A stretch of 48,679 nt of DNA, the filler included, from Sphacelaria rigidula (Eukaryota): NCBI GenBank assembly GCA_964200075.2. It is 2 parts of 2 records of this genome, joined end to end, with 100 filler letters (N's around TTAATTAATTAA, not from the genome) between each part and the next. Parts side by side here need not be neighbours in the genome. Positions count along the whole stretch, not along the records: positions 1 to 24,299 come from CAXNAA020000211.1; 1 more part is not named here. One strand, written 5' to 3'. The position numbers were made by a program, and so were the translations under genes. Below the pieces are notes generated by a model. It did not search any database. It was not told the origin of the DNA and saw only the letters and a program-made list of their open reading frames with translations. Of the stretch, positions 14,001 to 23,518 are shown one piece after another; within the stretch, counting starts at the first letter, position 1, and every line of letters begins with the position of its first letter.

Positions 14001-15624
14001 CTGGGTGTGTCTATAGAGTCAGAGGTGAGGCTGCGGTAGTGAAATCATACTCACTGTCGTATGAGTTGGGTGAACTATGGAACGCAAATGATATCCCCCC
14101 AACACAGGTGCTGACGATGAATCGAAGAACAAAATTGAGCTATTTTTCTGCGCAATGATTGGGTTGAAATAAATGTACCTCATTGTGACACTTGTTTTTC
14201 AGTGTAGAGCAACACGGGGTGAGGGCGCGGCAGAGAGCAATGATATTGGAAAGGGTGGTGAAGTACTGTGACGAGGCCTTCAAAATGGCTTTGGATCTTC
14301 TGGCATAAAACCGAAATGATGACGAGGACAACTTACTAGTTTTTGGTTCATTTTTTGCTGACATTTTTGGCCTCCGCCACATGGGCGAAACACGATAAAG
14401 TAAGAAAACGTGTAAACAAAACGAAGAAAAATTCAAGAAAAAATCGAACACAGTGAAGGCTCCATACAAACATGATTCGCTTGACCCTTGCTTGGACCGC
14501 GAGGGTTGTCCATCTAGATCATGGGTACTTTTTTTTAAAGCTGATGCTGATGCATAAGATGACTTACTCTCGCCGTCTAAGGGCTAACTTCCGGAACAGA
14601 CGTTGATGTCACTCGAAAGTCACGCGAATTTTGGAGACGCAATCCTTGAAGAATCAGAGTTCCCTGTCGTGAATGGCCGTACGTCTGGCCAGTACAATTG
14701 TTTCTGTAATGTCGCCTAAAAATCAGGTAGAACCTGTTCATTCGTTTTGCTGTACCAAGTATCGAGTCACTACAGTTCTGGTCGGGAACATACACATGTA
14801 GATACATATCTATATATAGCGCACAAAGTACATGCCTGGATCATGTAGCGTCAAGCTAACTTGCATTACCGTTATATCTGCTGGCCATTCAAATATTTGA
14901 ATTTTGGTGGTCGAAAACTATGTAGTCGTGTCCGCATGGAAAATTGAATGTCTCTGTCCTGCTTACACGTGCATATACAGGAGGTCGTGGCCAATCTTCG
15001 GCTCGAAGCGGGTGGAGTGCAAGATCGCAAGCAGTTCGCGCTGAAAATCGCTAAAGATCTGTTCCAGTTCATGTCGTCGTTCAGCAATAGCACACAGGCG
15101 GGAGCGGAGATGATGGTAATACCGACGAACGTGTTGGACAGGTGCGAACAGTGACGGTGACATAAGCCTCTCAAGGTGGTTCGGTTTTGCTTCCCTTCGT
15201 ATTTTCTTGAGACTTTTCCTGCGTTACGTTGTTCTTACTACCCCGTACTGGCACGTGGCCTTGCTCTCAGCTCGAAGTTTCGTGTGCTTTTCCGTCGCTC
15301 CCCCCCGTGTTGTTGCCGTCAATGTCTGATGACTATGGCATGCAAGATCATGAGCGCACCCCTATTGTTGCCGTTTCTTGACGTTGTAGTGTCTACTCGT
15401 GATCCAAGCTGCATCGCTAGGCCAGATGGTGGTGTTCTACTCTGCCGCGCCTGGAGTTGAAATCTCCAGTGTGAAATAACGGCGCTTCGTGCACGCCGAT
15501 GGTCGTGTGTCGCTCATTTCTCTGTACCGCCCGCCCGTTCTCACCGCGGTTGCAACAACGCAGGTGGATAACTCGCTTCGAGTCCAAGTATAATCGAGAT
15601 CCCAACTTCATGCTCAAGGAATGA
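11020..15624 (+). CDS. HIKESHI: Hikeshi/Opi10 (DUF775) family Hsp70 nuclear import carrier, 6 exons, 189 aa
   Basis: Exons spliced by hand, all GT-AG and phase-compatible: 11020-11087, 12214-12262, 13458-13567, 13904-14024, 14981-15141, 15564-15624 (570 nt). Translation: MATAPGVPFGVIAPGRPVISEFR VIDSSKCVTEISCPRE VDEVVFFLLPNSPVPPGHAAVLYFSVP...EHW EVLGAVAAGKPSGVFRTGW...AQLGVSIESE EVVANL...FALKIAKDLFQFMSSF...MVIPTNVLDR WITRFESKYNRDPNFMLKE*. The FG-x3-PGRP, KPSGxF, GVSIE, LFxFMSSF and WxxRFExKYxxDPNF motifs are typical of Hikeshi. Confidence 0.93.
11507..11614. mobile_element. Truncated copy of the same piggyBac-type MITE in Hikeshi intron 1
   Basis: CCCTTTTGGAACCCAT...GTGAATCGGCATCAT...CAGTCATTTTCAAGT...AAAATGATGCCGATT aligns by eye with 48026-48135; the right terminus is missing. 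Confidence 0.8.
12395..13300. repeat. Degenerate GGGTA/TACCC-rich repeat blocks in Hikeshi intron 2 (12395-12680 and 13150-13300)
   Basis: Dense GGGTA, TACCC and GGGTACCC motifs on both sides of the family-B SINE. Confidence 0.5.
12722..12955 (+). mobile_element. SINE-like dispersed repeat (family B); inverted partial copies at ~9175-9365 and ~38652-38870
   Basis: B-box-like GGTTTCGATTTC near the 5' end. The body GATTTCCACTGTCGAAAGCGTGA...GACCAAAACGCAAGGTGTGTACCGG is the reverse complement of similar sequence at 38731-38862 and 9240-9362. Confidence 0.6.
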
Positions 15625-15631
15625 GGACGCG

Positions 15632-15830
15632 CTACGTGTGTGTGTGTTGTCGTCCCATCTATTCTGGGCGCCGACCTACACCTTTCGGTATATGTGTGCG
15701 CATCAGCCGGGGTCACACAGGAGGAAGGTCAACACAGGAGTTTTTATTTATTTATTTGTTTTTAGTATCCCACCTTCCTTCTGCGGTGCTCACCTTTTTA
15801 TTTTTGGTGATAATTTCAAGGAATTGTTTC
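15632..15830 (-). mobile_element. Partial copy of SINE-like family A immediately after the Hikeshi stop codon
   Basis: TCCCATCTATTCTGGGCG...GACCTACACCTTTCGGTATATGTG...GGGGTCAC..GAAGGTCAA closely matches 17210-17345. Confidence 0.75.
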
Positions 15831-17194: not shown

Positions 17195-17540
17195 TATTAT
17201 GTGCTGTCCTCCCATCTATACTGGGCGACCTACACCTTTCGGTATATGTGGGCGCACCAGGTGGGGTCACGCAGAAGGAAGGTCAAGGATCTTTTTCTTT
17301 TATATTTGTCTTGAGTACCGCGCCTTCCTTTTGCGGTGCTCGTCTTTATTTTTTATCGCGAGAGGGGTTCAGCACTTCCTTTCCCTCGTCGACCGTTAAG
17401 TCGAATGTTGTGTATCCACGACATAGTCGCTCTCATTGTTGGGCATGGTGCGAGAAAAAGTCTCAGATTGCTCAGAGATTTGAACACACGACCCAACCGT
17501 CAAAAGGTGTAGAGGTTACCAGCTCCCACTGGGGCGACCG
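17195..17540 (-). mobile_element. tRNA-derived SINE-like dispersed repeat (family A)
   Basis: The minus-strand head GGTCGCCCCAGTGGGAGCTGGTAACC...GTGTTCAAATCTC has A-box and B-box-like motifs. The body is shared with 15632-15830. Confidence 0.6.
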
Positions 17541-18001
17541 TGATCGTGAGGTATTATACTTGTATCTCAAGCTCGAGGTTCCCGGTATAGTTATGGATGA
17601 ATCTTGCATCAATCGACGATAACAATGCGTCGAAGAACCACATTCCAGTTCTCAAGCATCACAAAAGACCTGCAGGACGTGGGTATTTGGAGCTCACCAC
17701 ACAGCTTTTACACTCGTTCTATTTTGTATTTGTGGTATTTTGCACTTGAGCCATCGCACGATCCCTGAGAAGCGGGGAAACTCCGGTATCATGCGGCGGG
17801 ATTACAACTGCTTCGCAGCAATCTCCGGAGATTTGCAATTGGGGACTATAATATGTGCAGAGGCAGATCGTTGCGAACAAGGACGAAGCGCACCTGATCC
17901 AGACCTAATCTACGTGGTGAGAAGACTAAAATATTATGCACCACGCTTAATGCGCACAGATTAAGGCGCAAGTCAACCCTGGTGGAGCAAGTGACGTTTC
18001 A

Positions 18002-21000
18002 ATGATGGCGGAGCAGCAAGTATTCCTGGAGAGCGAGCCATACCCCTGGCCGTTCGACGGCAGCTTCAACTCAACCAACACAGCGATTTTGGCGATCGAT
18101 ATGCAGGTTGACTTCTGCGCACCTGGCGGCTACGTTGACACGATGGGGTGAGTATGCCTCACAATGAAACTTATCCCTCGAGTAGGTCAATTCCATGCAT
18201 GACACAGATACGGAAGAGAAAGGCTCGGTTGTTTGCAAGTGGTATGTTAAGGTATCGTCTTCTGCCGTCTGGTGTATGACTCTATACATTATTTCTAGTT
18301 ACCCTCGGCAACCTCATCCTCCCTTCCCATCGCAAAACTTTGGTCCACAAGGTTATGACAACAATGCTGGTCCAGGGTTAACGCCCAAAATTTATTCCCG
18401 ACAAGATACAGAACGCAGAACTGATCCTAAGAAAACATGTTAAGTATCACAGTGACCCCCAGGAGGAAACGAACAGTGTGGCATGACCAGATTTTCTCGC
18501 ATCCTTCGCCTTGGTGCCGGTAGTAAAAATGTTGATCGGCCAATCAGGGGTCTTTGAACTGTCCTGAAATTAAAAATGCGAACTCCGGACTCAATTTTTA
18601 TCTCATCGCATCACTAATTAAACTCTAGTAGACGTCAAAACCTAGGGAATCTAACACGAAAAACGGGTTTGAGAACGGTTTGTATGGGATTGAGTTATAC
18701 CCCGAAACGTGATATTCCGGTGACGGGGTTATGGCGTCGTCGAATTTCCACTGATGATACGCATCAGACCCAGAAAGCCTCTGGGCGTTTTTCCTTGTAA
18801 CTATTGTGCAAAAGCTGCGATCACCCTCAAATTTGGCAGTTTGGTAGATATGGGTGCTTCAAAAAAAAAAGCAAATCGTTCAAGGATATTTCCCCAAGTT
18901 TATCCGCTCTCAACCAGCTTCCGGGGTCCCAGTGTGAAGACCCTCAGAAGCCGGTACAAATTGTCTCAACATAGAAGATTTAACTTTAACTCGCCCCGAG
19001 GTAGTCCAAGGAATGTACAAGTTTTCGTTGCGTAAAATCTGATCCCACAAGGTGGATGCAAGCTCAAGCGCGCAAGGAAAACGTCGGTAGCATACTATAA
19101 TCAATTAATTCGGAGGATTCAGCATACAATTGTGTACTATACTTCAATATACATAACGGGCGATTTCTCACGCCTTTTTTCCCATTTAGACCCTACAACT
19201 TTGAAGGCGGGTGCTTTGAGATATTCAGGAACTCTCCATAAATGTTTTTTTCGATTTTTCTTTTGTGTTCGCCAGATATCCGGAGTCCTAGGAGGCGGTG
19301 TGACATGGCACCGGTGGTCATTCGTTGTGATGGTGCTCGGCAATACTGAATACACCTTCGATTCTAGAATGCTCCGGAGGCGGACGCTGGGTCTTGCAGA
19401 GCTTCCCCGAGAAAAGTCTACGGACTTATGGCGCAAAAATAATACTTTGGAGCTTACATGGCGTGTCGAAACGGCCACAGACAGACGGAGAGACTGACAG
19501 ACAGACAGACAATTGAAATCACTACTTCTCGATATGATCCAACGTCGAGCCGCCGGAATCAATTTAAGCCGCTGGGACTAACCAGGTCATGCCCATTCTG
19601 CAGGTACGATATCTCGCTCACACGAGGGCCCATAAAGCCCCTCCAGCGAGTATTCGCAGCAGCACGCAAAGCGGGGTTCACGCTGATGCACACAAGAGAG
19701 GGACATCGCCCCGATCTGGCCGACTGCCCGTTGAACAAACGATGGAGGAGTAAGCAGATTGGCGCCGGCATCGGCGACAGCGGGCCTTGCGGTAGGCGAG
19801 TCAAACATATAGCCCCCCCGGTTGTATGCGTCACACCCCTCTTGCGACACCTGCCTTTGCTGAGCTGCCTTGGCGCTCGTGTGGCTTTTGCGGTGTGTTG
19901 TGTACATTTTTGTCATGTCTTTTCACGTGTGATTTCGGCGGTGCTATGGCGGTGCTCACTATGCGGTGCCATGCATTCGCACGTCTTGTGTTGTAAGTCG
20001 GTTTTCTAGTGTTGCTGACTGCTGCTGTTGGTGTGGTCATAATAACCAACGCCCCTCGTGTTGCTGACTGCTTCTCTTGGGCTTAACGTAACTATCAGGG
20101 TTCAGAGCGAGGGCTTTGTACAAGCTCGAGAGGTATGTTCATCGCCGTGACTGCTGTTCGAGCAATGTCATCACACTCATACATGCACTGCGTGAATCCA
20201 ACCCAGGATTCTTGTAAGAGGAGAACCTGGCTGGGAGATTATTCCGGAGCTCGCCCCGGCCGCTGGGGAGGTGGTGATCGACAAACCGGGCAAGGGCTCA
20301 TTTGTGGGCACTGATCTTGATATGGTGAGCTATTGATCGAGTTGGCAACTGGGCGGTGTCTGGAAGGCATGTTTTCAAAAACATGCTTTCCCTTCTATTG
20401 CTTTTACTGCAAGTACGCACCGCATTTACAACTCCAGAGTCAAAATATGACCCCTGTGTGCCACTTAACTTTTCACACTAGAACATTGTGACATCTGCCG
20501 AGAGATACGGACGATAAGCCCCTGGATCGCTACTAGACGCCGAGGGTGTGTGTGAGTGGAATATGACTGTGTGTATGGTTACTACTACTACAAGCGATTG
20601 TCGAGGACTCATGGTCCTTTCACGTCGGCGACACCGGGAGATGACTCTGTATACTTCCTGAGCAGTAGACCCCGGGTTCAAAACCGCGGCCCCGATCAAC
20701 ACAGCCGATGGAGATATTCCCAAAAAATAAGCGAGCAAAAAAGTGGACGTAAAATTGGTGAGGGGTCAAATAACTGGTGGGGGATGTGGACACTGTCACG
20801 GACAAGTTTTCGGGGGATGTTATTGGCTTGGCGATCCAACACGCGCAACACACATGTGCAAAAATGTGCAACAGTATCTTAACCACCAACCGGCGAAAAA
20901 AGTTACCTCTTCAAGCTCATCCCCGTCAAAGAACTCACGAAGAGACTCATTAAGCGGGGATGTGATGTGGACATTCCCAGGTAGAAGGTATGTTCTTTTA

Positions 21001-21298
21001 CTATTGTGACCATGGGTTCGAGAGATCGGACTCATGTGCGGAAGTAATACATACGTGTAACAATAATGTACAAGTGTCCGTCGAGGACGCTTCCCCTTTT
21101 CACGCATGAGCCTTTCCATTTACTGCCGACCACAGGGCAAGTCAGTGTTGCAGGTATGGCCAGGTTGACAGCTCCGTGCGCAGCTCGGCCGTTGAAGACA
21201 AAGTGCTACCGCGACTCAGCGACTTATTGTGCACACAGTCTCCAGGATTGTCGTTTTGTTGAAAGAAGCCCTATCGTAGCTGAATTGCCCGCTTGCTG

Positions 21299-21332
<34 letters not shown>

Positions 21333-22392
21333 TGGGGGGGGTTGCCACGGGGGCCGGGGGGGGGGTGGTCCCCCCCCCTCCCNNNNNNNNNNGTCGGTGG
21401 GGGGGGTGGGGGGGGGGGGTTTTGGGGGCGGGTGGCGGGGGGGGGGGGGGCGTTGTCAGCTGCATGACGACCCTCGGTAGAGTGTGCTGCACCATGCACC
21501 ATTTCCTTACCTTGTGCCTTTCATTTGTGTTGTATCAGGTGCTGAGAACGCGAGGTATCAAGAACTTGGTGCTGACGGGTGTGACAACAGATGTTTGCGT
21601 GCACACGACAATGCGAAACGCCAATGACATGGGGTACGAGTGCGTCCTGCTTGAGGTGAGGGGGTAGTGCCGAGGCATTGGCTGAAATATCAACTTGTAC
21701 AACAACAGAAGGTGAGGGTAAAAGTTGGCGAGTTCGAATCCTGCCAGACACGGTGTTTTTGAGCAGAATCTGATTCCCTTGTTGAAAGGGTGGGACGCGA
21801 ATAGTGAAGAAAAATAGACCGAAGTTGATAGGGTGCGGAAGTGCTAATGCAATGATTTGTAGTAAACAATGCAAAGCAAGTGCCGGAAGGGAGACTGGTT
21901 GATCCCTTGTGACTACAGACTCGACGCGAGGAAATGCAGCGGTTAAAAGCATGAGGGAACCTCCCCCCCCCAAAAAACTGGCAGTCGGCAGCAGTACAGT
22001 GCGACTCGTCCGTTTAGGGGGTGGCGATGTTTCGTAGAAGGACACCGATGAACATCACCCCTGCTCCAATACCCCAGAGACACTGAGCGGAGAAGGGTAG
22101 CGTGTTGCTTCCGATGCAGCGTTTTCAGCACATCGATTCGTGATCAACGCCAACATCTGCTGCCGAATTCACCTTGTGTCAACCGCCCCGCCGCGATGGT
22201 TGGCGTTGTTTTTCGGGGGGGGGTACCCTTTTCCGGACCATACAGGACTGCTGCGCGGCTACGGATCCCCTGAACCACTCAGCTGCTGTATCCATGATCA
22301 AGAAACAAGGAGGCGTTTTCGGCGCAGTGTCGACTTCGACGGCGCTCATCGCAGCCATGGAACGGACACAAAACCCCCCAACACCGCTTTAA
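18002..22392 (+). CDS. biuH: Biuret amidohydrolase (BiuH-type cysteine hydrolase, isochorismatase-like superfamily), 5 exons, 239 aa
   Basis: Exons 18002-18147, 19604-19795 (GC donor), 20207-20324, 21539-21655, 22246-22392 (720 nt). Motifs: [116 protein letters not shown]. The residues D33/K139/C172 and F38/K142/Q212 sit at a constant offset from Rhizobium BiuH D36/K142/C175 and F41/K145/Q215 (reference recalled from memory). Confidence 0.92.
21309..21450. other. Poly-G/poly-C tract around a 10-N gap (21383-21392) in biuH intron 3
   Basis: Long G runs flanking Ns indicate low-quality sequence. Confidence 0.8.
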
Positions 22393-22789
22393 CTCCCTTC
22401 GTCCGTCGAGTACTTGGGGATACTTTTTTATTCACCAGAGACATTCGTACATGGAAGTAACACGTGAATGGTAACCCACCATCGGTATATATTGTACAGG
22501 TTGCAGTTGAGGGTTTTCCCGTAGCCGCGGGGATACCATACGAAGCGCAGAGGTGCACAAGTCGTTCCGCTTCGCGTGTTTGCTGAAGTACTGCTGTAAT
22601 TGGAGGTGGAGGTAAGATGCGCAAGACGTTGTTGCCGTAAGGGGATGAGAAAGTGCGGTGGCCTTCACGTAAGCGTTGTGTTTCTTGAAAATCACTCTTG
22701 GGCATGAAAATCCGCACGCATGCAGAAAATAGCGGCATGCTGGTGTTTCAACTTGTTTCTTCTTCTGTTTTTTGCGTCTGATTATTTTT

Positions 22790-23148
22790 TTTGCGCTGAG
22801 CTGTGATCGAAAACCATGGTGCGGGGGTCGGGCGTATCTTGTTCCTTTTTTTTCAGATTTGTTCGTCGGGACCGGTTTGTCATGTTCTTGTTCTCCTTTC
22901 CCTCTCCTTTCCTTTCCCTTTCCTTTCCTTTCCTTTCTGTTTTTTTTGTCTCTCGTTTTTGTTTGGTTTACTCTGTCTGCTCCATCTTTTTTCCCTTGGT
23001 GTTTTACCTTCCTTGAGTCTCCACTAGTGAGTGTTTCAGTGTTGTTAGCCTTGGGCACGTCTATCTTGTGGGTGATGACCTCGGCTGGATCATGACTCCT
23101 GGGGGTCAGTTGATGTGCGACCATCACTCGAGTAATCAAAATCAACCA
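22790..23148 (+). mobile_element. LINE/SINE 3'-tail repeat (family C); related copies at ~10330-10573 and ~11150-11504; a related inverted tail at 23207-23390
   Basis: A pyrimidine-rich body is followed by CCTTGGGyAyGTCyATCTTGTGG.TGATGACC...CAGTTGATGTGCGAC.ATCACT and AATC-type ends. The minus-strand copy ends in (AATC)n at 23212-23227. Confidence 0.6.
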
Positions 23149-23518
23149 GTTGGGGGAGAAAACTACGCTAGTGCGACCCCTGTAAAGTACGGTGCCTCTC
23201 CGCTGAATGAGTGATTGATTGATTGATAGCGCACTTGAACTGACCCCCCAGGCATCCACCCGTGGTCAGACGATAGACGTACCCGAGACAAAACACTCGC
23301 GAGATAATAAAGAAAAACAGAAAAGGTAGAACACAACAACCGAGTAGACTAAGAAAAAAAAACATGCCGTCAAAGTCGCTTGTCGCATGTCCGCACACAC
23401 TATTGATAGGATTCGGGAGGGAAAATATTCGTACTTCGCGACCCTTTTCGGATCAAGATGGAGTTGAAGAAAAATGCCGTCAACTTGACATGAGTGCGCA
23501 CGGCCTCTTGTCCCTTAC

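Follow-up and report, generated by a model that had tools for sequence, protein, structure and literature searches.

A spliced nuclear gene of the brown alga Sphacelaria rigidula for a predicted biuret hydrolase, with orthologues in brown algae and diatoms

The gene considered here is a predicted biuret hydrolase gene of the brown alga Sphacelaria rigidula, and its closest described counterpart is BiuH of Rhizobium leguminosarum bv. viciae 3841 (PDB 6AZO, 6AZN, 6AZQ, 6AZS and 5BK6; PMC5806882), the best match in both PDB and NCBIfam. The accessible part of that paper describes a thioester mechanism at the cysteine equivalent to C172 of the algal protein. Two further enzymes are described in the accessible sections of PMC7948467. 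RhdBiuH of Rhodococcus sp. Mel (PDB 6XJM and 6XK1) is a biuret/triuret generalist and also stands alone, its genome having no trtA, while the triuret hydrolase TrtA (PDB 6XIX) belongs to the same fold family and has the same six active-site residues. According to the same sections, TrtA retains the BiuH residues D36, F41, K142, K145 and Q215, and six TrtA positions differ from BiuH (F35, N41, A134, E160, Y187 and I205). The algal gene lies on the plus strand of the window, by which we mean the whole stretch of 48,679 nucleotides that was analysed, made of parts of two records of assembly GCA_964200075.2 joined by 100 filler letters.

The algal locus shares with Rhizobium BiuH gap-free colinearity, the catalytic triad and the substrate-binding and subfamily residues. 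Unlike the Rhizobium gene, it is nuclear, carries four introns and a long 3' untranslated region, and stands in no operon with an ABC importer, trtA or atzF; its predicted protein has K instead of M ahead of the binding Gln, V in place of I170 and further ochrophyte-specific residues. RhdBiuH was the second-best PDB match of the orthologue from Nemacystus (348 versus 367 bits) and has Ala where the window protein has Ser at position 144. The reading favoured here, to which a probability of roughly 60% is given, is that this is a single-copy, spliced, nuclear brown-algal gene for a cytosolic BiuH serving a route free of the allophanate hydrolase AtzF, in a clade with diatom genes that descends from one old bacterial gain.

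Assignment to the BiuH subfamily was made from profile, alignment and tree evidence. The best NCBIfam match of each exon was the BiuH equivalog model NF050097, with the exons in order along the model (positions 2-40, 42-104, 106-144, 145-182 and 184-221; E values of 2e-10 to 8e-28 each). The scores of the separate exons sum to ~321 bits, set against a curated cut-off of 370 bits that applies to whole proteins rather than to pieces. That cut-off was passed by all five brown-algal orthologues tested (384-399 bits), and two TrtA-like controls fell below it (244 and 248 bits). Against a home-made profile that represents 98 BiuHs from named prokaryotes, the spliced protein scored 422.6 bits, two orthologues that pass NF050097 scored 420.5 and 423.2, and TrtA-like proteins scored 234-241. 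Exons 3 and 4 were above the Pfam cut-off for PF00857 (isochorismatase-like cysteine hydrolases), the D33-K139-C172 triad being present, and the cut-off of the RutB model (TIGR03614, 378 bits) was missed by the orthologues, which scored 123-134. Compared with PDB, exon 2 alone gave E values of 2e-26 for the structures of Rhizobium BiuH, 4e-23 for Rhodococcus BiuH and 5e-10 for TrtA.

Residues 1-229 of the window protein align to residues 4-232 of Rhizobium johnstonii BiuH in one gap-free block with 62.4% identity over 229 aa, as the first-pass annotation had proposed in calling the two colinear without indels. The alignment with Ideonella BiuH was also gap-free (68.3% identity over 221 aa), whereas the TrtA-like neighbours of these two proteins were 48-50% identical to the window protein and required gaps. 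D33, F38, K139, K142, T168, C172 and Q212 correspond to BiuH D36, F41, K142, K145, T171, C175 and Q215 with a constant offset of 3. The annotation had taken the GGYVDxMG, TTDVC and KxQGG motifs as marks of a biuret-specific subgroup; the BiuH call stood, and the six residues that it cited did not set BiuH apart from TrtA, all six occurring in TrtA as well. At the positions that do discriminate, the window protein has the BiuH-type residue in six out of six (Y44, Y50, S144, D170, T197 and V215; Val at the TrtA I205 position is taken from the alignment made in this analysis) and the TrtA-type residue in none; in two TrtA-like controls, every one of these positions is TrtA-type. The S144 position is Ala in Ectocarpus and Rhodococcus BiuH. 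In trees of 229 and 100 rows, the TrtA-like rows were split from all BiuH rows, including the window protein, by a branch of support 100, so that the phylogeny suggested earlier as a check placed the protein with BiuH and not with TrtA. The exon profile matches, the conserved triad and the six BiuH-type positions together support a predicted BiuH with an intact catalytic site, as first annotated.

After all GT/GC donors and AG acceptors around the eight junctions were tested, a single open model with the family motifs was left, with a coding sequence of 720 nt, a product of 239 aa and a third-position GC content (GC3) of 0.66. The five exons and the residues D33, F38, K139, K142, C172 and Q212 given in the earlier annotation were thereby recovered. 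A GT donor four bases upstream of the intron 2 donor gave no open model; the GC donor, a feature absent from the earlier annotation, was the sole fit and agrees with the 411-nt skip in the contigs described below. Because of an in-frame stop at 17948, the start codon must lie at 18002 or 18005. Only 12 residues precede the conserved PYxW, as in bacterial BiuH, which makes a targeting peptide unlikely; the enzyme is therefore probably cytosolic, as judged from the predicted protein.

Splicing was assessed in sequencing runs. The search returned eight runs with the gene, from two studies and none on record as RNA, of which four were aligned. At the four introns, contigs of X1, X2 and X8 omit exactly 1456, 411, 1214 and 590 bases, while X7 had none of the four joints and its contigs continue through the introns. 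The former is the pattern of spliced cDNA and the latter that of genomic DNA. X1 and X8 agree in size and depths and probably represent a single data set deposited twice, giving at most two samples; the RNA nature of X1, X2 and X8 is a guess by the search tool, and contig depths cannot rank expression. The claim of a real nuclear, spliced gene rather than contamination is thus upheld by the skipped introns. A separate contig spans the whole of the GC-AG intron in X1, X2 and X8, more fully than any other intron is covered, at a depth of 7-9 versus 77-121 for the spliced contigs; this coverage may reflect a retained intron, pre-mRNA or DNA.

The gene was single copy in its own genome by exon-by-exon search of the contigs. 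Each protein search listed the best 120 of 2237, 8000 and 8000 matches, most of them unnamed, and members of 30 clusters were looked up; the taxonomic range given here is therefore a lower bound. The nearest named proteins among the matches listed were brown-algal, with identities to the window protein of 89.5% in Nemacystus, 88-90% in Ectocarpus, 87% in Scytosiphon (87-90% across these Ectocarpales) and 79% in the Discosporangiales Discosporangium and Choristocarpus. With Hapterophycus, represented by a partial protein, at least six brown-algal genera carry an orthologue. Diatom orthologues came next among the matches listed (72-74% identity where measured), from at least nine genera: Phaeodactylum, Amphora, Seminavis, Fragilaria, Cyclostephanos, Asterionellopsis, Licmophora, Cylindrotheca and Nitzschia. 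The feature is consequently not special to S. rigidula. Good support for vertical inheritance among brown algae comes from the orthologues in several of their genera. Among the matches listed, kelps, fucoids, xanthophytes, pelagophytes, raphidophytes, oomycetes, fungi and green algae had no named representative; for kelps and fucoids this hints at loss in those orders. A search of the ESM Atlas returned isochorismatase/BiuH clusters only, without usable taxonomy.

None of the named algal entries found is labelled a biuret hydrolase. The Ectocarpus siliculosus entry (CBN77501.1) is a 'conserved unknown protein', that of Seminavis robusta (CAB9526318.1) is labelled RutB and that of Nitzschia inconspicua (KAG7368282.1; P0368, 492 aa) is a nicotinamidase-like amidase; Nemacystus decipiens g5883 and Phaeodactylum tricornutum B7FUZ0 are further unlabelled orthologues. 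KAG7368282.1 appears, unlike the window gene, as a fusion with a TrtA-like domain in front of the ochrophyte-type BiuH domain, an order reversed relative to three unnamed BiuH-TrtA fusions (P0254, P0255 and P0256).

Four trees were built: a FastTree tree of 229 rows, from which proteins below 215 aa, AtzF and one chimeric row were left out; an IQ-TREE tree of 100 chosen rows under LG+G4; and a quick and a careful mixture-model tree of 62 rows, from which 39 of the 100 rows, including the TrtA-like rows, had been dropped and to which a Rotaria fragment had been added. Named fungal or green-algal BiuH rows were in none of them. Brown algae and diatoms, with some unnamed environmental rows, formed one clade in all four, with support of SH 98, 99, 95 and 100/94 respectively, so that any transfer would be very old. 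The clade's neighbour was a group whose named members are alphaproteobacterial (Bosea, Flaviflagellibacter, Bauldia, Jiella and Rhizobium sp. CSW-27), and the branch uniting the two had support of 96, 95, 93 and 99/90. Within the brown algae, Discosporangiales stood apart from Ectocarpales, as they do in the accepted phylogeny. Signature columns were defined as those held by at least 80% of 11 brown algae and at least 75% of nine diatoms and by at most 15% of the 98 named prokaryotes; nine such columns were found, among them C90 (20/20 brown-algal and diatom sequences versus 1/98 prokaryotes), M183 (18/20 versus 1/98) and K211 (19/20 versus 0/98). On these data the origin would best be read as one old acquisition from bacteria, with the alternatives standing in the approximately unbiased (AU) tests considered below.

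Partners for the enzyme were sought in its own genome (244 Mb in 27,214 contigs), which is fragmented and was queried exon by exon; GatA and BiuH exons were retrieved by the same searches at 41-63% identity. Bacterial TrtA and the Nitzschia fusion matched only the exons of the BiuH gene itself in these searches. When allophanate hydrolase was sought with the AtzF protein, with TIGR02713 and with the C-terminal domain of AtzF, only two amidase places came up in the assembly. These candidates (L009/L092 and L093) were rejected as allophanate hydrolase since they score best as GatA; they are two amidase-signature genes, on contigs C26945 (L009) and C15745 (L093) of this genome (G000), the second of which could be another amidase. 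Urea carboxylase gave 14 matches in the assembly, all to biotin-carboxylase or biotinyl parts and none in model positions 419-1132. Thus none of the three partners listed for a genome search in the first-pass annotation was found in the fragmented assembly. RhdBiuH adjoins atzD, and an AtzD search of the algal genome was blank, as were its controls, so this result is uninformative. Three urease-alpha exons were found on contig C17072, one with the metal-binding HxH motif, and uricase exons on contig C16724.

By homology with the bacterial enzyme, D33 would activate C172, with K139 tuning D33, and biuret would be bound by K142, T168 and a Q212 contributed by the neighbouring subunit. The predicted BiuH would turn biuret into ammonia and allophanate. 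The earlier annotation held that a downstream allophanate enzyme would be needed; this need would fall away, as none was found in the fragmented assembly, allophanate decays to urea spontaneously according to the accessible part of PMC7700744, and urease exons are present. For the same reasons the simplest route would run from biuret to allophanate and ammonia, then to urea, most likely by unaided loss of CO2 from allophanate, and then to urease, which would complete the route and make all three nitrogens recoverable. The gene was most likely acquired once, long ago, from a bacterium whose closest sampled relatives are Hyphomicrobiales and other alphaproteobacteria; introns would have been gained after the transfer and the gene kept in some lineages. 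A fuller version, in which one alphaproteobacterial gain preceded the split of brown algae and diatoms, the enzyme was retuned beside its specificity glutamine, and urate oxidation products or dissolved biuret are used through ammonia, urea and urease without AtzF, is put forward tentatively, with odds of about one in four.

Several observations weigh against a single gain and an AtzF-free BiuH. The named matches, among those listed, come only from Ectocarpales, Discosporangiales and diatoms, a distribution that demands many losses, and the absence of AtzF and TrtA rests on exon-by-exon searches of an assembly of 27,214 contigs. The bootstrap of the careful 62-row tree had not settled (0.962), the consensus columns were moderately skewed (12 brown algae with diatoms, eight diatoms with prokaryotes, four brown algae with prokaryotes), and 80 of the 98 prokaryotes had been picked because they lie close to the sister group. 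Four constrained alternatives were put to AU tests (LG+G4, quick trees, 62 rows), and none was rejected: brown algae with alphaproteobacteria (p 0.32), the diatom side with alphaproteobacteria (p 0.23), ochrophytes with the Rotaria fragment (p 0.51, with a likelihood 1.66 higher than that of the free tree), and ochrophytes with Rotaria and two unnamed BiuH-TrtA fusion proteins (p 0.35). The old horizontal transfer proposed at first is accordingly favoured by trees in which the gene is nested among bacteria, but neither a wider eukaryotic clade nor separate origins were rejected. Independent acquisition by brown algae and by diatoms from related bacteria, or a transfer from alga to alga, would account for both the patchy distribution and the AU result on splitting the clade; they sit poorly with one clade in four trees, nine shared rare residues and a Discosporangiales/Ectocarpales split that fits the accepted phylogeny, and are considered improbable. 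A viral vector was sought; there were 47 pattern matches and no relative among viral contigs. A gene already present in ancestral eukaryotes, perhaps derived from the mitochondrial ancestor and inherited vertically with loss from most lineages, is brought to mind by the alphaproteobacterial neighbours, by the constrained grouping with the rotifer-labelled protein and the two fusions, and by a pathway reported from fungi and phytoplankton in the accessible part of PMC7948467. However, these three candidate eukaryotic rows lie among other bacteria in all free trees, outside the 99/90 branch, and are without nearly all of the ochrophyte signature residues; homologues went undetected in animals or land plants according to the accessible part of PMC7700744, citing Robinson 2018; and 62-77% identity to bacteria would be high for so old a split. 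This origin is judged very improbable. That the two fusion proteins are eukaryotic is itself a guess, and the Rotaria protein (P0049; Rotaria sp. Silwood1, CAF3650950.1), in which the first 118 aa are bacterial-type BiuH and the remainder is unrelated sequence, is a transfer, a contamination or a gene-model error.

With a single gain retained as the preferred origin, the main rival concerns substrate. Since K211 and V167 depart from all or most prokaryotic BiuHs, K211 adjoining the Q212 whose position decides between biuret and triuret, the substrate range may differ, which also counts against a plain BiuH; together with the failure to find TrtA in the genome with a bacterial or diatom query, K211 makes a broader range the main rival. 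The enzyme would then be a biuret/triuret generalist, or one shifted to a related endogenous ureide, and would handle urate oxidation products itself as RhdBiuH does. RhdBiuH, from a genome without trtA, is reported in the accessible part of PMC7948467 as a generalist with identical active-site residues, the Nitzschia fusion suggests that a triuret step exists in the clade, and uricase is present in the S. rigidula genome. All six discriminating positions are nevertheless BiuH-type, and RhdBiuH itself favours biuret ~40-fold in kcat/KM (same source), so this rival is held to be unlikely, at perhaps a one-in-five level. Bacterial contamination or a pseudogene, for which the high identity to bacterial proteins might speak, can practically be dismissed: four spliceosomal introns are skipped in contigs, the frame is intact, brown-algal orthologues are 79-90% identical and the same contig carries a Hikeshi-like eukaryotic exon 3 kb upstream of the gene.

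The new element is a branch of BiuH in brown algae and diatoms that had gone unlabelled; the enzyme family and its presence in some eukaryotes are already known. Reportedly, the abstract of Robinson 2018 names some fungi, archaea and green algae. Members of the pathway in 'some fungi and phytoplankton' are in print in the accessible part of PMC7948467, and genes from horizontal gene transfer (HGT) account for ~1% of the genes catalogued for brown algae in that of the Phaeoexplorer preprint (10.1101/2024.02.19.579948). Old bacterial genes being common in these genomes and eukaryotic members having been mentioned, the surprise is lowered. The main text of the preprint does not contain 'biuret', 'isochorismatase' or 'urea', and its supplementary HGT tables may list the family; no algal names occur in one supplementary file of PMC7948467 (6,123 characters), and term look-ups in the accessible parts of PMC13155557, PMC10805520 and PMC7928374 gave nothing on algae. 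No report of BiuH in brown algae or diatoms was found in the literature covered, to which subscription journals mostly do not belong.

The algal BiuH bears on the question of where biuret comes from in nature. In the accessible parts of the respective papers, biuret enzymes are linked to fertiliser and s-triazine use (PMC7700744), biuH in nitrifiers is treated as purine-linked (PMC12625717), and uric acid, oxidised to triuret and cyanuric acid, is proposed as a source (PMC7948467). An intron-bearing BiuH conserved in brown algae and diatoms would imply that marine phototrophs kept the enzyme long before agriculture. Natural biuret metabolism becomes testable in two tractable models, through Phaeodactylum B7FUZ0 and Ectocarpus CBN77501, and the database labels of unknown protein, RutB and nicotinamidase-like can be corrected. 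Should the fuller version, with one gain, a retuned enzyme and an AtzF-free route, hold, biuret-type ureides would be an ancient natural nitrogen currency of major marine primary producers and more than a by-product of fertiliser and herbicide. The coordinates of the gene are given in Table 1.

Table 1. Features of the predicted BiuH gene, in window positions
Feature	Position	Strand	Basis
5' untranslated leader (minimum extent)	17881..18001	+	spliced contigs start at 17881 (X2) and 17905 (X1)
Exon 1, aa 1-48; catalytic D33, F38, BiuH-type Y44	18002..18147	+	model search, NF050097 match
Intron 1, 1456 nt, GT-AG, phase 2	18148..19603	+	joint in X1, X2 and X8
Exon 2, aa 49-113; BiuH-type Y50; C90 common to brown algae and diatoms	19604..19795	+	model search, profile match
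Intron 2, 411 nt, GC-AG, phase 2	19796..20206	+	411-nt skip in X1, X2 and X8
Exon 3, aa 113-152; catalytic K139, substrate-binding K142, BiuH-type S144	20207..20324	+	model search, profile match
Intron 3, 1214 nt, GT-AG, phase 0	20325..21538	+	contig joint
Exon 4, aa 153-191; T168, BiuH-type D170, nucleophile C172	21539..21655	+	model search, profile match
Intron 4, 590 nt, GT-AG, phase 0	21656..22245	+	contig joint
Exon 5, coding part, aa 192-239 and stop; BiuH-type T197 and V215; Q212; K211	22246..22392	+	model search, profile match
3' untranslated region (minimum extent), ~1 kb	22393..23362	+	one X8 contig, exon 3 to exons 4 and 5 to 23362

The leader holds two upstream ATGs within 17936-17952 (at 17936 and 17950), the first of which is in frame and terminates at 17948. 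Intron 3 contains a poly-G/C tract with a gap of 10 Ns (21383-21392). Of 42 selected open reading frames (ORFs) scanned in the window for other genes, one gave a credible match, an exon with a Hikeshi-like C-terminal domain (PF21057, E 1.5e-5, just below cut-off) at 14978-15139 on the plus strand. No Pfam match was obtained among the ORFs scanned in 24300-48679, which lies beyond the N gap and off C211, the contig of the gene. A 54-nt inverted repeat was present at the ends of C211 (1-54 and 24229-24282); it was discounted as a mobile element carrying the gene, since this high-copy repeat recurs at the ends of many contigs (1222 candidates). A very high-copy, transcribed-looking short repeat was also seen at 17226-17445 and 15672-15732, ~600-750 nt upstream of the start.

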